The notes under the pieces were generated by a model. It saw nothing but the letters and a program-made list of their open reading frames with translations, searched no databases and was not told where the DNA came from. Below are positions 17,586 to 45,696 of a DNA stretch of 47,870 nucleotides, piece by piece (the stretch's first letter is position 1; the number at the start of each line of letters is the position of its first letter). The position numbers and the translations under genes are program-made. The stretch comes from Conidiobolus incongruus B7586 (taxonomy: Eukaryota), in NCBI GenBank assembly GCA_000697335.1, contig JNEM01009166.1, positions 1-47,870 of the forward strand. The letters are read 5' to 3'.

Positions 17586-17914
17586 AATGATGATATTAAT
17601 TCAATAGTTGTACTTTGAACAACAACTTAGTAATCTATGAGGGTTAATATTTATATTGTTTATTGATGAAATCAACTTTTGAGTAGTTTACAATTTGAAA
17701 ATTAAAAAACTTGTTAGATAGTTCCCATTATATCTAATTATGGTAGTATTCGAGTTACATCAAATGGGATGTTATTGATACCACCAATTTCGATCATTTA
17801 TCAACCAAAATATAGTACGATTTTATTGGATATTATGATAGGAATATTGTTAATTAAGAGTCATTAAATAACAAAAATAATTTAATATTAACTCATAAAA
17901 GATTTATTTACATA

Positions 17915-20209
17915 TTAAAAAAATGACTGAAACTTGGAATACTTGTTCTGTTTTGTTAAAGCATTACTCATATGTCTTGATATGAATCCTGGCCAACAGT
18001 CAACAGGTAATTGATGATGAATGACACACTGTTCATAGAGCGACTGAACAGGTATATCGGGTATTTGGGAATCACTAGCTTCGTTATTCGTTTTAAAGTT
18101 CATCTAATAATATTTAATACTTGCTTTAAATATAAAGTAGTTTTATAATTACCTTAACACATAAAGCTAAAGAATAAAAATAGAGCTATAAAATGAATAT
18201 TATATATGCATATTCTGATTATAGTATTATTTATAATCACCTGTTTAAGCTTTTCAACTTCATCTACATGTCTTTGGATATCAAATTGTCCCTAAATAGA
18301 TGATTAGGTTAAATTGTATAATAACAGAACATATTAATATACCAAAAATTCTTCTTCAGCAGGATTTTTTTTAGCATTATCTGATGGTGTAAATAATCTT
18401 AACTGAGAAATTCTTTCAACAAGTTCTAATCTCTTATTTTGCTCATCATCGAGAGCTTTTGTCATACTTGCAATTTTTTCATCAGTAGTAACAGTTAAAG
18501 CATGAACCATCTGAAATTTATTAATTTCCATGATAACAAGCTTACTATAATTATAAATAATTTACCTGTTCTAGAGAATTGATAGTCGTATTGGCAACTT
18601 CTAGCTGTAATTGGAGCTGTCTCATAGAGAGTGCATTCTGAAATACATTGATTTAATTAATAAATTTAAATAATAATAATAATAATATTAATAATAAATG
18701 TCTTACTTTAGAAACAGATACCATACGATCAGCTTGCGTTTTATATTCTGCTAATAAGTCTATAATATCAAAGTATTATTTCGATATTTATATGATATAT
18801 GAGAATATTTGTAATTACCAGAAGGATGATAAAATAACATATCATCAGGAACTAATTCCTTATTGAAATTAGATTTAATAGGCCAGTAAGGATCACTCGA
18901 ATAATACTTAAAACTTAAGTGAGGGCCTAAAGTCGAACTCTCTCTGAGTTTTCCATTTTTATGAAAGTAGGTCACTATAATACGGTGTTTTCCCCTATTC
19001 AAAGTAACTTTTCCCTCTTTTTCTTTATTATAATGCTATCAACATATATATTAATGAAATGTTATTGAATCAAATAATAATTAAAAATTACCACTCCATC
19101 ATTTGAGATAATTGGTTTGTCCATATTTTCAACAAATAGTTCACTACCATCATTACTTTCTAAATAGAATAAATGACTGCCTGATTTTGGAATATGTAAA
19201 TATGCTGTATATTTTACAGCAAAATTTCCTAATTCTTTAATGATTACTTAGTTAAATAATATCATTATATAATATATGGTGATAATCACCTATATCGGGA
19301 ACTTCGGTATTAGGTTCCATGAAATCTGATTTCTCAGTTAACAAACCAATTGAAATATTAGGAACAACTCCAACACTCTAAATTAAATATTAATAAACCT
19401 TGGATATTTATCATTAATAAAGCTTTTACAGTTGGTATCAGTTGATCAAAATTTGGCAACTCGCTAAATTCACCTCTATAATACTCATAAACAACCCCAG
19501 GCTGGCATTCTTTTAAGTCGATGCCTTCGTGTTGAGATAATTCATTAGTATTAATAGTACTAGAGATCATGGAACTTCTATCCGACTAAATAACAATTAA
19601 CCAAATTTTTAAGAATACATAAAATAGAAATACCGTAGTATATTGATGGTGACAGAGTTCAGCGTGCCTTCGCATATTCTTTCTAGACACCTGCTGGTTA
19701 CATCTCGGATGAATACAAGGAATAAAACGTTCTAAACACTCAGTTTCCAAATGATATGTAAAATTCTTTTTTAATAAAATTTCTTCACATGTTAAACATT
19801 TCACTCTTAATTCCTGTAACTGTGACTCGACAGAGTCACTGGAGAAATATTGACTTGAGTGCGTTTTACATAGAGGACATAATAAATCCAAGTCGGGTAC
19901 CAATGAATTATTTCTCGAGTGACTGGAAAGATGGGGACTATTATTCAACGCTTGGTCTAAACTAATGGCTTTGGGTGTTTTTTGTTTGAGTTTGTTCGAT
20001 TTTTTGGTTTGCTTAGAATGAATTGAAAATGTATCTGCTTGAGGTGGTGGCGAAAGAGGTGGAGACGTAACAGATACCCAGCCAAAAACACATTCAGAGC
20101 AAAAAGTATGATTACAGCTCAATGTAATCGGATTTAAATAAGGATTAGAACATAGTGGACAAAGCAATTTAGGTTCAACGTAATCTACATAGATATACAA
20201 ATCTTCCAT
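17915..20209 (-). CDS. RING finger + TRAF-type zinc fingers + PA14 domain + coiled-coil protein (~579 aa, 11 exons); putative E3 ubiquitin ligase
   Basis: C3HC4 RING (CPLC..CNH..CSEC..CPLC); TRAF Zn finger CIHPRC...HAELC; PA14 motifs GVVYEYY, NFAVKYTAYLHIP.SG...FYLESNDGSELF, ISNDGVH...EKEGKVTL.RGKHRI.V.YF. All 10 introns are GT-AG and phase-consistent. Confidence 0.88.
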
Positions 20210-21295
20210 TATGAATGATCTGTATTAAGGAATAATAAAAACTACAAAATGCAAAATATATCAATTATTTTATTGATTAACTTTAGTAAATATTTATAAA
20301 CAAAAAGTGAATATAAAAATTGTGGTTAAATTTATTTTAATCTCATTCAATAAAAACGCGAATAAATAGTGTTGGAATAGATTACCATTTTTTATATTAA
20401 TTTATACATATTTTATTTATCCATTCTTAAGCATGACTTAATGTTTGGATTGTCTATTTGAGAATAATATAAATATCTGAGAATAATTGATTTTGGTTCA
20501 TAGATTTTAACCTTTTCTGTTTATATTCTTCGATACATATTTATATTTTTCTTTTTAATAATTCAAACCAAAATAAATAATCAATATAGCTCAGTATCAC
20601 TGTGACCTAACTGAGCAAATTGATATAATTAAACCGCTATATTGTTAGTTGAATGTTGATTCAACTAACATTGAATAAATTTAGTTCTAATTTCGATTTG
20701 ATTATATCTTTCATAATATTCATGAATCAAATATCAATGACTATCATTATTACATGTAGTAACATATTGTATATATAATATAAATATCAAATGAATAAAT
20801 TATTTTGTATATAATTTTTGCAAATCCTTAAATCATAATTTTCAAAATTATATGGATTTTGAATATGATTCAATTACCATATTTGGGAATTTTTCAAATA
20901 TTAGGCAAAAGAATACAAATTGAATTTTTCGACTTATTTCATATTTATTAAGTAGTCAATCTTGAAATAAATATAATTTGTTGTTTCGTATAGTATTATT
21001 GGTTAGTGTAATATATAAAAATAGACATTATTTTCAAATCATAGAAAAAAATACTTGATATTTTTCTGAATATGAAAGTAATCAAAATTTGTAATTATTC
21101 GAAAATAATATATTAATCAAGTGTGTGAGAATTTTGATGATTGATATTTGATCTCATATTTCCTTCACATGATTAATTAATGAAAAAATCCCATAACAAA
21201 CTATAAAGTGTGATGTTATAAAGCTGTTTGAATTTAATTGACTGCTTTTAATTTATAATTATATAATACAAAGCTTTAGTTAATTATAATCATCG

Positions 21296-29052: not shown

Positions 29053-29386
29053 TGTCACGGGCCGGAGAACCCGTTCGTCCTTAACAATTCAATTCATTCG
29101 AGAACCCCGTCACAGATCCACCTGCAACATGACCACAAAATACACCCGAGCAATGCAATCAATCGTTCCATCCGACGTACGGTTCGTACGCTGGGAAGAC
29201 ACGTTAAGCAAACTATAAATATGCCGACTACAACCAAGTTAGCACGTCGGTCCTCTTCCTAGGGTACAGCCCAATAATCCAGGTTAAACAATAAATTACC
29301 CCTTTTATATCACCAAACAGGAGCCGTCCCGGAAGACGACTATTTACTTAAAAGTTATTGGACACTTGACTTCCCAGCCAGTATCA
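29053..29386 (+). mobile_element. Solo LTR (334 bp), probably Ty3/Gypsy-type
   Basis: GC-richer island starting TGTCAC and ending GTATCA (TG...CA), flanked by ATAT at 29049-29052 and 29387-29390. Internal TATAAATA (29214) is followed by AATAAA (29290); GAGAACCC(C)GT is repeated in the 5' part. Confidence 0.75.
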
Positions 29387-29607
29387 ATATATTAGTTAAA
29401 TATTAGATAATTTAACATATCCCATAATTACTTTGGCTGAATTAAATTATATTTATTGAAATTAAATAAAGTCCGAATAGATATTTAATGTATATTCAAT
29501 TAATATATCTCAAAATATATTTCGCACATTACTACTATAACAAAATATTTAAACACACATTTTAATCAATAATTATAATTTACCTTTTTTTAATTCTTTC
29601 TTAATTG

Positions 29608-31326: not shown

Positions 31327-31971
31327 CACTTGTTATTATACATTTATTTTTTAATGATCAATAAATTTTTATATTAATATTCAATATTATGTAAATATCC
31401 ATATCAATGAAACTATCTAATTTATTTATTGTTACAATATAACGATATTTTTCTATACTATTTTCAATTTGATTTAATTTTATATTGTAGACTAAATAAT
31501 GTGACAATTTTTCATTTTTAGATAGTAGACATTATACTTATATGACTAAAATAATTTAGCTTCTTGGTTAAATAATTGGGAAAATTTTTAAATTTAATCA
31601 ATACAATCCAAATGATTCATATGTGAAGTTATACATTTTGTTTGTTTAAATCCTAACAGTTCAGTACATATTTGAGAGAGTAGCTAAGCATTATTATATG
31701 GTGTCTGTTTACTTATTCAACAATCTGTCCTAATACTAAATATATACCAAATTCATTCATTACAGTGATTTAATATAAGAATCATAAAATACTCTAACAT
31801 ATATAAGGATAATTGGAGTAGTGATAAAAATAACTAAACTTAAACGTATAACTTAATAGGTTAAACCTCAAACCGGTTCCATTTAATATTGGTTCAGAAC
31901 AAATATATAGTTATCAGTTTCCTCAGTTTTGATCCAACTACGTTTTTAATTTGATTCACTTACATATCATC

Positions 31972-32523
31972 ATGAAATTATCTACTTTCGCTATTGCCTT
32001 AACTTCCATCACCGCTGCATACGCCCAATACGAAGATGTCTGTGGAAAAAATGAAAGTTATTGTTTGTCTACCTGTCATAAACATGGAGGTGTTTTGGTA
32101 AATATTTGTGATCCTAAAAATATGAACTATGAATGTCAATGTGAAGATAAAACACGTCCTATTGACACTTGTAAGGACATTTAATTGATAATGTTCTATT
32201 ATATTCATTAATAATTGTTTATTTTAGATGGTAATTTCCCTGTTGAAATTGAGAGATGTATGATCAATAATGCCAGCTGCCGTGATAAATGTAACGATGA
32301 TCCTAGTTGCCTTGCCAAATGTGACAGTGAATTCAAATGCATTTTCAAGGATCCCCACGATGGTAACGTTACCAAGCCCACTACCAACACCATCAAAGCC
32401 CCTGGAACTGCTCCTGCCACCGACGCTCCCAACCTCAATGGTAATGCTTTCTTCTCCAGCGCCCCCGTTTATACTTTAATTGGTACTTCCATCTTTGCTT
32501 TCTCTATTTCTTTAATTGATTAA
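31972..32523 (+). CDS. Small secreted 12-Cys protein (164 aa) with Thr/Pro/Ala stalk and GPI-type hydrophobic C-terminus; intron 32171-32227
   Basis: Signal peptide MKLSTFAIALTSITAAYA. The phase-1 intron joins two ORF-track fragments (..RPIDT-Y-GNFP..). C-terminus NG/NA-FFSSAPVYTLIGTSIFAFSISLID. Confidence 0.85.
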
Positions 32524-35777: not shown

Positions 35778-38153
35778 ATGAGTGTCCAAGAAATGTTCAA
35801 CTCCCACCAAATGAATAGTTCTTCCGAAGAAGAGTTAGTTATTAAACCAAAACATACTACAAAAACTACTGATCAAACTAGCAATGCTCAGCTCGACGCA
35901 TTTCACAATATTTCTTCCATAGCTAGTACTCTTCCTAGAACAAATTCCTTCAAATACGAGAACCAAGTAGTCGAATTTCAAAAGCACACTGCTTTTCAAG
36001 AAACTATTAACTCAGGTAATTACTACACACTTTAATATTATAATAGAAAATATTTTACTTTCTACAAGAAATTATAAATTTTACAATTTCCAAAAATATT
36101 GATCGTTAATTGATGATAATGAAGGATCTTATATAATTAGCTATTCAATAAAAAATCCTAAGATTTTTAATATTATTATCATTATTCAAGTTGCTAATCA
36201 AGCTAATGTTTAGAAATTTCCAGAGTACTGGTTATTTACACTGGAGGTACCATCGGTATGAAGCCAAACGCTGATAATCATTATGAGCCCGTTTCAAATT
36301 ATTTAACTGAAAGTCTTGCTTCGATGGTTCGTTTTCATGATCCATATAATCCTCAATACTCTCCCAAAACTCTAGATTCTCTATCTAGAGTTGATTCTTC
36401 CAATCATTTATCCAGTTTATCTGAAAATATTCAGCACAACCCTCAGCTTCAGAATAGTACTCAACAAATATTATTGAATCAAACGAATTGGTTGATTACT
36501 CCACCTTCGCTATATGGTAAGAGAATTAAATATTCTATAAAGGAGTATGATCCTCTATTAGATTCTTGTAATATGGGTATGGATGACTGGGTTAAAATAG
36601 CAACTGATATTCAAGATAATTATAAATTGTACGATGCTTTTCTTGTGTTACATGGTACCGATACCATGGCGTACACGGCAAGTGCCTTGAGTTTTATGCT
36701 AGAGAATTTGGGTAAAACAGTTATTATCACAGGTTCTCAAGTTCCTCTATCCGAGGTGAGGAATGACGCAGTTGAAAACTTACTCGGTGCTTTAACCATT
36801 GCTGGTCACTTTGTTATTCCTGAAGTGTGTCTCTACTTTAATAATCGTCTCTATAGAGGTAATCGTTGTTCTAAAATTTCTGCTATGGACTTCCATGCTT
36901 TTGACTCTCCCAACTGCCGTCCTTTAGCAGAGACTGGTGTAAATATCGAAGTGAATTGGGGTGAAGTATTTTTCCCTAGAGATATCAGCTCTTTTACAGT
37001 CTCTAAGAAGATGAATAATAATGTAGCATCTTTAAGATTATTCCCAGGTATTACTGACGCTACTGTCAGAGCTTTTCTATCAACGAATGTGGAAGGTGTG
37101 GTATTAGAAACTTATGGTGCGGGTAACACTCCAGATCGTCCTGAGTTGATGAAAGCTTTAGCTGAAGCCAGTAATCGTGGTGTTGTAATCGTTAATTGTA
37201 CCCAGTGTAGAAAGGGATCTGTAAGCAGTTTATATGCAACTGCAAAGGGTTTGATCGAAGCGAATGTAGTACCTGGTGGTGATATGACTCCAGAATGTGC
37301 CTTAACTAAGTTAAGCTATCTTTTGGCTAAAGGATACACCCCTGAAAAGGTGCGTGAATTGATGCAAACGAATCTTCGTGGTGAGTTAACAGAACCCAAG
37401 AAAACTGTACCTGTTTTTCCAGACAAACCTCTCGATTCTACCGAATCCAGCTCTTGTCTCCATTATCTATTCCATTGTCTTCCCCAACCTTTATCCCTTT
37501 TCAAGATTGATGATTTATCCAAAATGCAAATCAACCAAATGTCAAGATCCCTTCTGCCTCTCATTTTATGTTCTGCGGCTAGTGCAGGAGATGTTGACAC
37601 AATCAAGCACTTAAATTTCGATCTGGGATCTCAGCTTCAATTCAATATTACTGATTATTCAGGAAACACACCATTGCACGTAGCTTGTGCGAATGGCGAA
37701 ATTGAAGTTGTCAAATACTTACTCCTCAATGGAGCTAGTGTTCACCTCCAAAACCAAAGGGGGCATACCCCCATCTTCGAGTCTATTATGGCAGGCCATC
37801 TGGATATTGTTCAATTACTAAGACAAGCAGGAGGTCATCTAAATTTATCAGAGATAAAATTTGCCACCCTACAATTTTTCAATTCTGCCAACACAGGCCA
37901 ACTCCAACAATTACAACTCTTCCTTGAAGGTGGTATCCCAGTAAACAGTCAAGGTGTATTTGGATCTACTGCACTTCACTTTGCAGTCGAAGGTCAACAA
38001 CTTCGAGTGATCAGTTTCCTTCTAACTGAACCTGACATTGATAGGAATTTAAAGAATAATTTTGATTTGACGCCTTTAGATTTAGCTAAAAGAAAATTAG
38101 AATTGGATCCAAATAATTATAACCTTCAAAAAATTGTTAAAATTTTACTATAA
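35778..38153 (+). CDS. Type I L-asparaginase with C-terminal ankyrin repeats (60-kDa lysophospholipase/ASPG type); intron 36016-36213
   Basis: VLVIYTGGTIGM and HGTDTMAYTASALSF catalytic motifs; TGSQVPL, DMTPECALTKLSYLL; ankyrin repeats GNTPLHVAC, GHTPIFE, GSTALHFA. Confidence 0.94.
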
Positions 38154-39599: not shown

Positions 39600-42500
39600 T
39601 CTAAGGTAATAGATGGGATTAAATGTGTACATGAAGTTTATATAATGATTTGAATTCATTGAATTATTTTATAATTAGAAGGTTCTTTGTGCTGAAGAAT
39701 GTCAAAATTAATAAAATCTTCAAAATGAAATGAAGGGATTTGAAGTTAATTGACTCTCTGATAAGAGTTATAAATGCAAATTAGAATCAAATGAACCAAT
39801 TCTTGAAGTGTTATCAAATTTTCTATATTTCAAGATTGAAAATATATTTAATTTGGAGGACAAGTTTCTTGTATCAATTTTAAGTTTTTGGTGTATACAA
39901 ATCCAACACATTGTCAAGAAGTTAATTTGTCATTTCACTGATTTGCAACTCCCTTTGGATATACCACTATCCCCATATGCATTATACGAAATACCTGTTC
40001 AAGAATTACTCACTAAATTAGCTACGCAGCTGGCCAAAAGTTGTTTATTATTGGCTAATTATATAGTAGATCATATTAAGTCAAAAATTTTCACTTCTGA
40101 TCAAAATAACTAACAATGGTTGAAATTATTGCCGCCAAAAGACACTTATTACATTATCCAAGCGTGTATATTGACCTATATTCAGAGTCGATTACATCCT
40201 ATTAGTAACGTATTTTCAATATTGTATAAATTTGGAACTTACATTGAACTGTGTAATAAAATAAACTTTATATTAAATCATAATACTAATCAACTATAAA
40301 ATACCGAACAAAAACACTAATTCTATTTCAAAAATCTTTTGAACTTAGTAAAGCTCACAAGTCCAATTTAGCCCTTCTGATTATTTTATCCTTTGGTTTT
40401 CCTTGTGATAGGAATTAGTGGTCAAATAGTATCATAATTATTCCTTAGTTAATTTATTATTCAGTACAAAAATTATCATAAATTAATTGGGTTAAAGTTC
40501 ATTTTTACAGGATCATTCTCTCATTTTTGTGGATCAGAGTTTATCGACTATAAATTTAATGATTTGTGAAGGTTTCAAATTTTGTTAAGGAGCAATAAAG
40601 AAACAGAGTAACTATCTAATTATTTACTATTATTCATTTAGTAATAGCATAGTTTTTTGGGTCAAAATCAATGAAATTACTCAACTCACAATAACTTTAC
40701 AAGATAAAATTACCATCATTGATGGACCAATTACCATCGAAAGAGCCAACTTTAATATTTTCTAAAACTAGCACTGTGCTGTATCAATTGAGTAAAGTCA
40801 TTTGTCAATGGATTAAATTGTTGCATACGAAAAAAAGTGAATTAAAGAATAAGTTAGCTATATCGCCTACTAGAAATTTGGATCAAATTGTTCATCCCTA
40901 GAATATTTCCTCAATTAATTCCTTTGATTTGTTTATATGTATCTCTAATTAATGTATTTATGCATTTAGAGTGATATAGAACTCTATTTAGAAAGCAATT
41001 GGATCAGTTTATGAGCGTATTTTGTAAAAGAGTATCTTTATATTGTATTTTATCCATGTATTATCTCAATTATGTTCAAGTTGCATACATTATCACAGAT
41101 CCTACAAACCATCCTATAACTATCAGCTACATCCAATCTATTGGGATTGCACATTACAATTTCAAACAATTTGATCAAACTTCATCCTAGTTCAAACATT
41201 GAAATAGTAAAGAAATACTTCTAAATGAATTTATGCGACAAAGACTTTCAAAAGGCAAAATCATTATTCCATATCATAAGCTTCTACTTAACCAAAAGTC
41301 AAGCTAACTCATACGGCCTTGCATGAGCTAAAAACTACATCGACAACATTTTAACTAAATTCAACTCCAGTTTTGCTTACTCCGCATTCACCATCATTCT
41401 ACTATGCATTGGCGAAGACGATTTCACCATCGAACAAGTCTATAGCTTAGCAAAAATCATCATCAATTCAAAAAATTCAATCACTCATACCTTAAATCCA
41501 GATTAGAATAGGATTTAAATTCAAATTCACATCACAGCCCACTTATCCTAATAATTTTCTAAAGAAAGATTCAACCCACGCTCAATTTATGTCCTTATAT
41601 ACAAGATATCAAATAACATCACAATTGACCAAACAACTGGATGAATTAATCAAAGCTAGGAAGTTTCAATTAAAGAAATCTCATATGTATTTGGATATGA
41701 TACTTCAAGTGAAATTTTCTCAAATACATAATTTCTGACAATTCAACTAAATTTATTAATAATTTTGAAGGGAGATGGTTTGTTGAATATGAATTCGACG
41801 CATTTATTAACAAGTGTTGGTGAGTTAATTAATTTAATAGTATTGTTAATTAAAACTATTCATTCAAGTATTAATTAATTTATTAGTATTATTCATATTA
41901 CCACTATCACAATCCTAGTATCATTATTGAAGTATAAAATGATTGCTTTGATATATCTATTGGGACTAGTGGATCACAAAATTAGCTTTCAATACATAAA
42001 ACTTCTATTGAATGTACTCAATTTATCTAAAACTCTACCCAATTATCATGATAACAAGCTTTAAACTAGCCCCAAAGACTTTTACTTAATGAAATAGCTT
42101 AAATCTCAAGTACCGAACTAATCAAATTAATCATTAGGTCGTTAAATTTGGGACCTTATTACCTCTATCTAATCCAACCCATCTACAGTCTACTCAATTT
42201 AATCACACAACCCAACTTCAATATTCTATATTAGCTCAGTTTTAAATTATTTTTAAATATATCTTCAACCTTCCTCATTAAAGAATACCTCTCTATTTGT
42301 ACAAATATTGATGAAATGCAGAGATAATATTCGTGATAAACAAGATACGGATTTAGAATTAATTACTTGGTATTGATTGAATTTTGTACAATGATTATAA
42401 TATGAGAGATATGGGAAATCAATGGTGAATATTAATTCTTGTTTGTTATTCAAAATAATATTAACTCATTCATAATAGTCAAATTGTACTTCAATACCTC

Positions 42501-45500
42501 AAACAGCTCATCAAATCCCATTCCAATGTCACCAAACTGGGGTCCATTCCCATGACTTAACATATCTATTTAACATTCTCACATTATTTTTTAACCAAAG
42601 CAAATATTAATTCTGGTTTAAAGTTAGCCTCAAGAGCGTCTTATGCGTCGTGACATTTGCAGAATATTTGATTGGGGCAGAGTACCAATATGTCGAGTGT
42701 TTATAGGAGCAATTGTTTTGATAAAGGCTTGTTCAACTTGTATTGGAATTTCCCAAATTTGGGTTATTTTGAGATAATATAATTTATATTATTTATTATT
42801 TACTTACGCATTTAATATAGTCAATAATTATAAGTTTTCAACTTGTAATTGAATCTTACAAAATCAGAGGCAGCTACCAACTTGCTCATATATATGTCCA
42901 CATGGAATTGACCTCTCTAAAACTACAAATTTCATCACAAATTAAATTTTTGAAATTTAATAATGATTCTAATTTTCATTTAATTACCGACTAAGAATGC
43001 CAATTAAATCAATTATTCACCCAATTTTCAAAAGTAATTCAATTATAATCTATCATAAATATATTATAATTAATATCTAGAATTCTTCCATTGACAACTT
43101 TCATCATATTTCCTCCATTTGGGAAATTCTGGTGAAATACTAGCTCGAAGTGTTTGAATTTATAGCTTCTCACTTCGGTTTTCATTTTATTTCAGATGGT
43201 TAACTCAATTAGATACCGCCTTAGATCTATCTGATATAAATATACACTGTGACGATATGACTGTTAATGTACCTTTTGATAAGATATTAGCACTTAACAG
43301 TAATGATGTATTATTAAGCTTAAACTAATACTAATATCATTTTAGATTCAAATGACATATTACCGTCTGGAAAATTTTCTACGATATCGAATTGGATGTG
43401 ATCAGATTTCGTTACTGGATTCATATACTCAAGTATAATATCTTCGATGAGGACATATTAAAACTAACTAACTTTCTGAAAAGAATTTTATAATTTAATT
43501 TTTGAGAAATCCAAACTAATTCAAGGAATTACAATTTTATAAAATTGTAGTATTTTTGGTCGTTTAATGAATTGTTGTAAGTTTTATACTTATTATTTTT
43601 ATTATTATTTATTTATTTAATTATATTTTAGTTTAGAATTTGCCTATCTCTTTAAAATATCTAGACTGTTTATTAATAGTCATGAAGACATTTTAATTGC
43701 ACTAATAACATCAGCTTTATAATTTAGATTAGCTTTTGACATACTTTCCATACTCATTCCACTAAGCTATTTTATATATAATATAAAAATCGTTAGAGAA
43801 ATATTTTTAAATATATCATAGTTGATGATGATTATAGGGTTTTCAAATCATCAAATCGATTTCTAGTCTCATATAATACTAAGTTCCTTTTACCTGTTCA
43901 AGAGTAAAGGTATAGCATTCTCTAGAAGTATATTAGATACTGTCATTAATCCCAATGACAGCTTGAGAGCTTTGTCCAAATAGCAAAATACTATTGAATT
44001 GAATACTCCTTCATCCTATTGTAAGTCGAGTCTACCCCAAAATCAAATCAACGATGCAATTAGCAACTATTATAACATAATACCACAAGAGCCCTAATCA
44101 TTCTGGGATAATATGCTCACACTGCTACCAAAACGATGGGCAATCCCTTCCATTGATCATATTTTCGAATATAACGGTCTCATTCTCACCCAAGTAAACA
44201 TTTTGGAGATATCAATTTGGCCAGAATAACATTGGTCTAACTTACATTAATCCCAAAGGACTATAAAGATTTTTCCAAGCCCATATCAGGCTCCCCTCAC
44301 ACTCATGCTTACAATAAACTCGACAATATTATCATTGGAAATGCCTAACTCTCCAAAGTTGGTATAAATTGCATCATCAGAGATAACATGACCAACTGGT
44401 TGAACAGTCGTAAACTGTTAGATGACTAATTGAAGGACTTACTACACATGATCGAGCAGCTATGGCTTAGTGTTTTTAAAAGTTTTTTATTGCTAAATTT
44501 CAATCATATCTCCAAAGTAGAATTAGATACATTATGCAATAATATTAATCGTCTTAGTCAAAGGTTTGAAGCATAAGTTGAGTTCAGATGTTGAATCTCA
44601 TTTCAAAATCGATGTAGACAGAGGCTTAATTCAAAGTTTTATAAGAATTAAATATGATTTAACCATTTCAGGTATTGAGGGTATGTTAAGTTTGCTTATA
44701 GATACTATTAAATTGGCCTTTCATAGTGCATTCGAGATTCTGGGAGATGATCATATTATAATAATAATGATACCTCACAACTTTTTCAAAATTCGATCAA
44801 CTCGGAATTCGACATGAGTCGTAAAATCGATCATGTGATATTAATAATCGACAATTATTTGCAGCCTTTCCTATGGGAGAGTTTACCCTATATTTTGAAA
44901 ATTCAATGCCGAGGATATTTTTGTTAGCTCTGCTAAAAGAACAACTGATCCTGCTCTAGAAATTAAACAGTCACATCTCTTCTCAAAGAGGGTTCCATAT
45001 GAATATGGGCTCTACATAGACCTCGTCCGCACTCAAAATTACTTTTGTGAAGGTTTAAAGGCTCCTGGTTGGTGTGGTGCAATTGGCAAAACTACAGACG
45101 AAGATACTCTTTAACTTTACTTAACTGCTTCTCTATATCTTTATTTTGGCCACGGAACGAGAGAGCAATGCCTAAAGTGGCTTGAGATACAGCGTATAAC
45201 GCCTGCGACCACTGCTATTCTATTCAACTGTTCATCAAGTCACGTTAAATTCTAAGGAGAATTTGAAGGATCAGTGGCCACTTGCCACTGTTTTCTTGCA
45301 TGCAGTTTTTGCAGTCCTTGCCAATTTGTGGGATGTGGCAAATATAAATATTGATAAATTGTTTCACAAGTTACTAGTATTGTGAGAGTTTGAAACTTTC
45401 AGAAAAATTACTATAATCGATGGCAACGACGTCATGAACGGTCACAATCTCGATGAAACTTTATCTCGGTCTTTGGCACTCTACAAATCACAGTCAGCTT

Positions 45501-45568
45501 TTGTTTAAAAACATCTAGTAGATGCTGTTCCTGTCGTGTATAGTTTGCTTGTTTACATTCAGAAATAA
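39600..45568 (+). pseudogene. ESP1: Decayed separase (peptidase C50, Esp1/Cut1) gene; 5' boundary approximate
   Basis: Manual translation gives, in separase order: LLPKRWAIPSI (~44140), W.NSRKLLDD*LKDLL..IEQLWLSVFKS (~44400-44485), HVILIIDNYLQPFLWESLP (~44830-44890), LYLYFGHG (His 45151), ILFNCSS (Cys 45229), GEFEG, VLANLWDV...IDK, AVPVVYSLLVY*. In-frame stops at 44427, 45112 and 45253 and a frameshift near 45310. Confidence 0.85.
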
Positions 45569-45696
45569 AAATTTCAATCCAATAAAATATATAAAATAAC
45601 TATATATTCAAATTTGGTAAATGTGAAAAATTTATTATTGAACATAAAAATCATGTGAATATAAACAGAATTTAGTTATAAAAGAATATAAAATTT

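Follow-up and report, generated by a model that had tools for sequence, protein, structure and literature searches.

The apparent gene desert between positions 39600 and 45568 of the window, which is the whole 47,870 nt stretch of DNA analysed here, very probably holds a separase gene that is broken and still carries an intron, with a second copy, likely intact and likely located in the same genome, supplying the function. Pfam, PDB and protein alignments confirm the separase homology of its 3′ part, and the protein alignment also its disablements. The parts of the locus are as follows.

39600..43350, plus strand: DNA of decayed coding character that probably represents the helical N-terminal portion of the separase gene; 5′ edge approximate
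43351..45568, plus strand: decayed C-terminal separase half, with the end of the helical region, the pseudo-protease domain and the active protease domain
43578..43636, plus strand: retained AT-rich GT-AG intron, predicted from a tblastn gap and alignment; ends uncertain by a few bases
45145..45156, plus strand: FGHG motif, in which the catalytic His codon (45151-45153) survives, from the sequence and a PDB alignment
45220..45243, plus strand: LFNCSSSH, with the catalytic Cys codon (45229-45231) kept and the flanking glycines lost

Identity and extent of the separase locus

Two matches to PF03568 (Peptidase_C50) identify the 3′ part of the locus. In particular, positions 44301-44894 match in frame 43800 of the plus strand (E = 5.7e-14, 52.5 bits) and positions 45019-45288 match in plus-strand frame 43801 (E = 1.4e-13, 51.2 bits), both above the family's curated cut-off of 27.8 bits. 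Among the 12 frames scanned against Pfam, only TIP41, on the minus strand, passed its cut-off besides PF03568; the third plus frame, the three upstream plus frames and three minus frames yielded no Pfam family, and a row for LrgB (E = 0.05) in the same scan fell below its own cut-off. A PDB search with 45001-45318 returned separase chains in 10 of 11 rows, with a best E of 2.2e-06, and solved separases account for 3 of the 5 weak rows obtained for the stretch before the catalytic part.

Three-frame translation shows the separase motifs scattered across changing frames, with their order kept: WxxxRxxLD, HVILIID..WESLP, DLxRTQ, YFGHG, CSS, ANLWDV and PVVY. The catalytic His-Cys dyad is retained, as FGHG and NCSS align with the solved separases, and the Gly beside the Cys is changed. 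The sequence-only reading had described separase protease motifs in order, with the catalytic His and Cys, in broken frames, and had staked this on the PF03568 profile hitting 44100-45568; the two profile matches, the PDB search and the alignment to the protein P0009 all agree with it.

P0009 is an 804 aa protein from a 12 kb contig (JGI/IMG and Logan), named hypothetical protein, that corresponds to the C-terminal half of separase. It is the closest intact relative among the 120 matches listed, of 291, and lies far nearer than all the named separases encountered; a search of metagenomes did not recover its contig. According to the P0009 alignment (tblastn, E = 5e-63), the homologous part begins at 43351, about 750 bases 5′ of the position 44100 from which the motifs had been reported. 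A quickly built tree of 41 rows, for which 40 of 124 proteins were picked by name to spread taxa, makes P0009 the sister of the window copy with a support of 100; the pair sits on long branches that do not place its lineage. The end branch of the window copy measures 2.27 and that of P0009 0.62, a difference that is partly alignment noise around the frameshifts.

The upstream part, from 39600 to 43350, is likely the N-terminal region of the separase, as judged from its codon signal, a step in G+C and its length. Trained on 4139 codons from ten window genes, a codon model gave a z of 5.4 on the plus strand of 39700-43300, which none of 60 shuffles reached and which equals the value for the homologous part; the minus strand gave -0.5. 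The last third of this stretch is weaker (z of 2.0, 1 of 60 shuffles). Three intergenic controls had plus-strand z values from -0.9 to 0.6, one of them with a z of 2.3 on the minus strand. Further, G+C rises stepwise near 39600, and a profile of 22 full-length separases (1831 positions) maps its position 1262 to 43792, so that by length, with introns allowed for, the gene start falls near 39600-40000. Upstream of 43792, the same profile gave best E values of 9-11 in a roughly collinear arrangement, which is not significant. The earlier assignment of this part to the N-terminal region therefore holds for the codon signal and the length, but separase homology is not detectable there; likewise, the proposed boundary near 39600 fits the length and the composition, but homology lends it no support.

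The retained intron

The frameshift-aware alignment to P0009 calls an intron at 43581-43636, and a GTAAGT occurs in the sequence at 43578; P0009 has no intron near 43580. Retention of this one predicted intron points to duplication at the DNA level and not to a retrocopy. A reading of 43815-43905 in frame 43800 that assumed a 22-base intron was rejected because P0009 aligns in frame 43801 throughout.

Disabling mutations

Over 43351-45553, the frameshift-aware alignment pairs 704 positions of the window copy with P0009 at 36% identity and contains 15 stops and 10 frameshift calls, one or two of which sit at the intron edge and are possible phase artefacts. The window copy accordingly has no continuous open reading frame. 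Its stops are of all three kinds, TAA, TAG and TGA, and stand alongside the frameshifts.

These breaks are present in the DNA itself. Three contigs of sequencing run X4 match 43922-45570 with no other letters and no gaps. Of the 15 stops, 10 fall in this interval, as do 6 of the 10 frameshift calls; moreover, four DNA runs, all from one sample, contain 0.99-1.00 of the stretch's words. The X4 sample is possibly the assembly's source, so the contig match excludes assembly slips and does not amount to an independent isolate. Within 43922-45570, the stops and frameshifts are thus not slips of the assembly, as the exact match of the X4 contigs shows, and the disabling mutations are real, with confirmation for that interval in the same sample. 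The check for assembly errors that the sequence-only reading had proposed therefore has a clear answer there: the breaks recur in read-derived contigs. That reading had also argued from the intact neighbours that sequence quality was not poor, and the long open frames nearby, together with a TIP41 gene that is predicted to be spliceable, bear this out.

It is accordingly extremely unlikely that errors of assembly, RNA editing or a variant genetic code account for the breaks. The confirming run could be the source sample itself, which leaves such an account some room, but the exact match over 43922-45570 comes from three independently assembled contigs, and the neighbouring genes are open in the standard code. 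The occurrence of three kinds of stop, coupled with frameshifts, further disfavours a variant code or editing, and this explanation is largely refuted.

A second separase copy

Run X4 contains a second separase contig of 2306 nt, three pieces of which align over 43845-45274; the N-terminal two thirds stay uncovered. It differs from the window at 174 of 1098 aligned letters and is thus about 84% identical. What can be read of its letters comes from 40 of the 151 differences on the list, plus 4 indels, 3 joints and 6 of 7 loose ends. Letters are seen at 3 of the 15 window stops, and the second copy has a sense codon at all three; the other 12 are divided equally between positions within (6) and outside (6) the aligned pieces. 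In particular, it reads TGG at the window stop at 43981, CAA at the stop at 44095 and, in a loose end, AGG at the stop at 43819, where its reading SRLTMIIEL is closer to P0009 than the window reading is. Its 95 visible codons include no stop, an outcome found in 235 of 20000 trials when the same 35 changes were placed randomly.

Wherever an interval can be tested, the indels of the second copy agree with an open frame (45274-45390 lies outside). For example, an insertion of one base behind 44195 pairs with the -1 frameshift at 44200, and the 217 letters it has against 214 in the window over 44550-44765 amount to a net +3, in frame. Between 44899 and 45018, it has 141 letters against 118, and these 23 extra letters give the +2 shift that an open frame requires. 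Further, a +3 at 45127 closes a one-residue gap, and a +1 and a -1 at 45173 and 45178 cancel out. At the catalytic Cys, the second copy reads LFGCSSGR against LFNCSSSH in the window, with the canonical GCSSG as in P0001 and P0009. Since the visible residues of the second copy differ from P0009, the latter is a relative's gene and not the paralog.

Overall, the second copy is probably intact and probably part of the same genome. Its protein was not found in the protein collection, where a search with one frame gave 0 matches, one with another frame 1 and one with alignment A2 291, of which the 120 listed did not include it; the collection also lacks the window neighbours (0 of 3 by exact look-up). 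The sequence-only reading had posed two outcomes, a functional paralog elsewhere or chromatid separation without canonical separase. As far as the contig can be tested, it supports the former, having no visible stops or frameshifts, and for the same reason it makes mitosis without canonical separase unlikely.

Age and mode of decay

Over the 95 codons of the copy pair, dS is 0.26 (bootstrap 0.15-0.42), dN is 0.10 (0.07-0.14) and their ratio is 0.40 (0.22-0.74). The divergence is even across codon positions (13/12/15), and the window copy has A or T against G or C in the second copy at 87 sites, with the reverse at 42 (p = 9e-05). In simulated neutral decay, 15 stops in 715 codons arise at about 0.08-0.16 substitutions per site. 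We infer about 0.13 neutral substitutions per site on each branch, with the window copy having escaped selection for most of the time since the duplication; a dS of about 0.26 with a dN of about 0.10 fits a duplicate that lost its function soon after arising.

Inactivation by RIP was considered and rejected, as C-to-T changes are not concentrated at CpA in this small sample (6 of 18 against 37 of 102 in the background, p = 1.0). The same small sample has 3 of 18 C-to-T changes at CpG against 6 of 102 in the background (p = 0.13).

Together, these results suggest a sequence of events in which the separase gene would have been duplicated at the DNA level and the window copy would have lost its function soon afterwards, drifting from then on without selection, by about 0.1 substitutions per site, towards A+T. 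Purifying selection would have maintained the second copy, which would carry the essential function; the window copy would make no protein and likely has no function. Separase frees sister chromosomes from each other and is essential in yeast. PMC3143119 describes it as essential in mice and names excess separase as a cause of aneuploidy, so that survival of one copy and loss of the spare would each be expected; PMC2680839 restates separase's role. As a speculation, loss of the window copy may have been favoured because surplus separase carries a dosage cost.

Alternative explanations

As a variant of the preferred reading that concerns the origin, the two copies could be homeologs or very divergent alleles in a hybrid, allopolyploid or anciently duplicated genome, with this loss being one among others in a wider return to single copy. 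Such an origin is possible, if unlikely. It would suit the finding of a complete gene and its intron in a dense neighbourhood without signs of insertion, and the contig depths of both copies are similar (16.8 versus 11.6-16.9), which implies no copy number. Against it, other decayed genes were not noted in the window, in a search that was not exhaustive, and blastn found no internal duplicate there.

If the sample is mixed, the second contig could also derive from another strain or species related to the window's organism, whose working separase would then lie elsewhere or be absent, although we consider this improbable. A nucleotide difference of 16%, as between the copies, is in the range of congeneric species, and neither copy turned up at 80% likeness in runs X5 and X7, which bear the same species label, a result that a filter can cause and that does not prove absence. 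However, a second organism would need to be present at similar depth, and the even spread over codon positions and the A+T bias of the window copy suit a decayed pair, although two organisms could still produce them. It is more improbable again that both copies are dead and that cohesin is removed without canonical separase. Letters of the second copy are seen for a minor part of it, which allows for breaks elsewhere, but all three visible stops are sense codons, the testable indels fit the frame, the catalytic motif has its canonical form and the pair's dN/dS is near 0.4; separase is also essential in the organisms tested for it (yeast, and mice according to PMC3143119). The broader claim that the second copy is dead elsewhere or foreign, and that a fungus-like eukaryote separates its sister chromatids without canonical separase, is similarly far-fetched. 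The preferred reading remains a decayed duplicate whose partner carries on the function.

Genomic neighbourhood

The locus is flanked by two genes.

36207..38153, plus strand: upstream neighbour, an open frame of 648 codons
45697..46809, minus strand: TIP41, the convergent neighbour, a predicted six-exon open frame of 278 codons (PF04176, splice search)

From its motifs, the upstream product is presumably asparaginase-like with ankyrin repeats. The window is A+T-rich; its open frames are long, at 33-41% G+C, and its introns short. From their translations, we take other window genes to be SPB1, PEX7, a MET30-like gene and PIG-S, a gene set that looks fungal. None of 80 metagenomic separase loci, all of them distant (best 24-29% identity), matched the 13 window gene pieces, including TIP41, or the upstream frames by tblastn.

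Three other features of the window were noted. Positions 29053-29417 form a G+C-rich island (about 0.46 against 0.2 around it) that starts with TGTCACG, ends with TTAACA and has TAT on both sides; by the TG...CA rule it may be a solo LTR, and a second copy of it was not found in the window. On the minus strand, 17900-20224 holds a RING-type zinc finger frame with several short frames resembling exons behind it, which may together form a single multi-exon gene of unusual composition. On the plus strand, 31933-32523 encodes a small Cys-rich protein in two exons, secreted-looking and with a hydrophobic C-terminal tail.

Significance and comparison with known systems

The locus offers a clean example of a duplicated essential gene of which one copy decayed and the other likely continues, and as read it matters little beyond that. 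An apparent gene desert of 6 kb that is a dead gene is a warning for annotation. If the second copy lies in a collinear block, the dS of about 0.26 would give a date for a hybrid origin or for the duplication of a segment or of the genome; if both copies were lost, a eukaryote would be dividing without separase, which would be the only striking outcome. In the literature searched, no paper was found on a separase pseudogene or on separase in Zoopagomycota, and, judged by titles and abstract starts, none on fungal separase duplicates.

Compared with separase, Esp1, Cut1 and ESPL1 (peptidase family C50), the window copy shares the motif order, the size of about 6 kb and the 3′ position of the protease domain. 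It departs from the functional members of the family in having no open frame, with its 15 stops and up to 10 frameshifts falling in the 3′ 2.2 kb, and in having lost the glycines around the catalytic Cys; P0009, in contrast to the window copy, is intact.

A unitary pseudogene has no counterpart in its genome, and the locus does not fit that description, as the sample contains a counterpart that is likely intact. In all probability, the window copy is an unprocessed, duplicated pseudogene with a likely intact paralog, an ordinary case of its class. It shares with such pseudogenes a kept intron, many disablements, a drift to A+T and, probably, a surviving parent copy. Separase is usually single-copy, and the window copy is the same in kind as unprocessed pseudogenes generally, with the difference that its parent is an essential mitotic gene of this usually single-copy sort.
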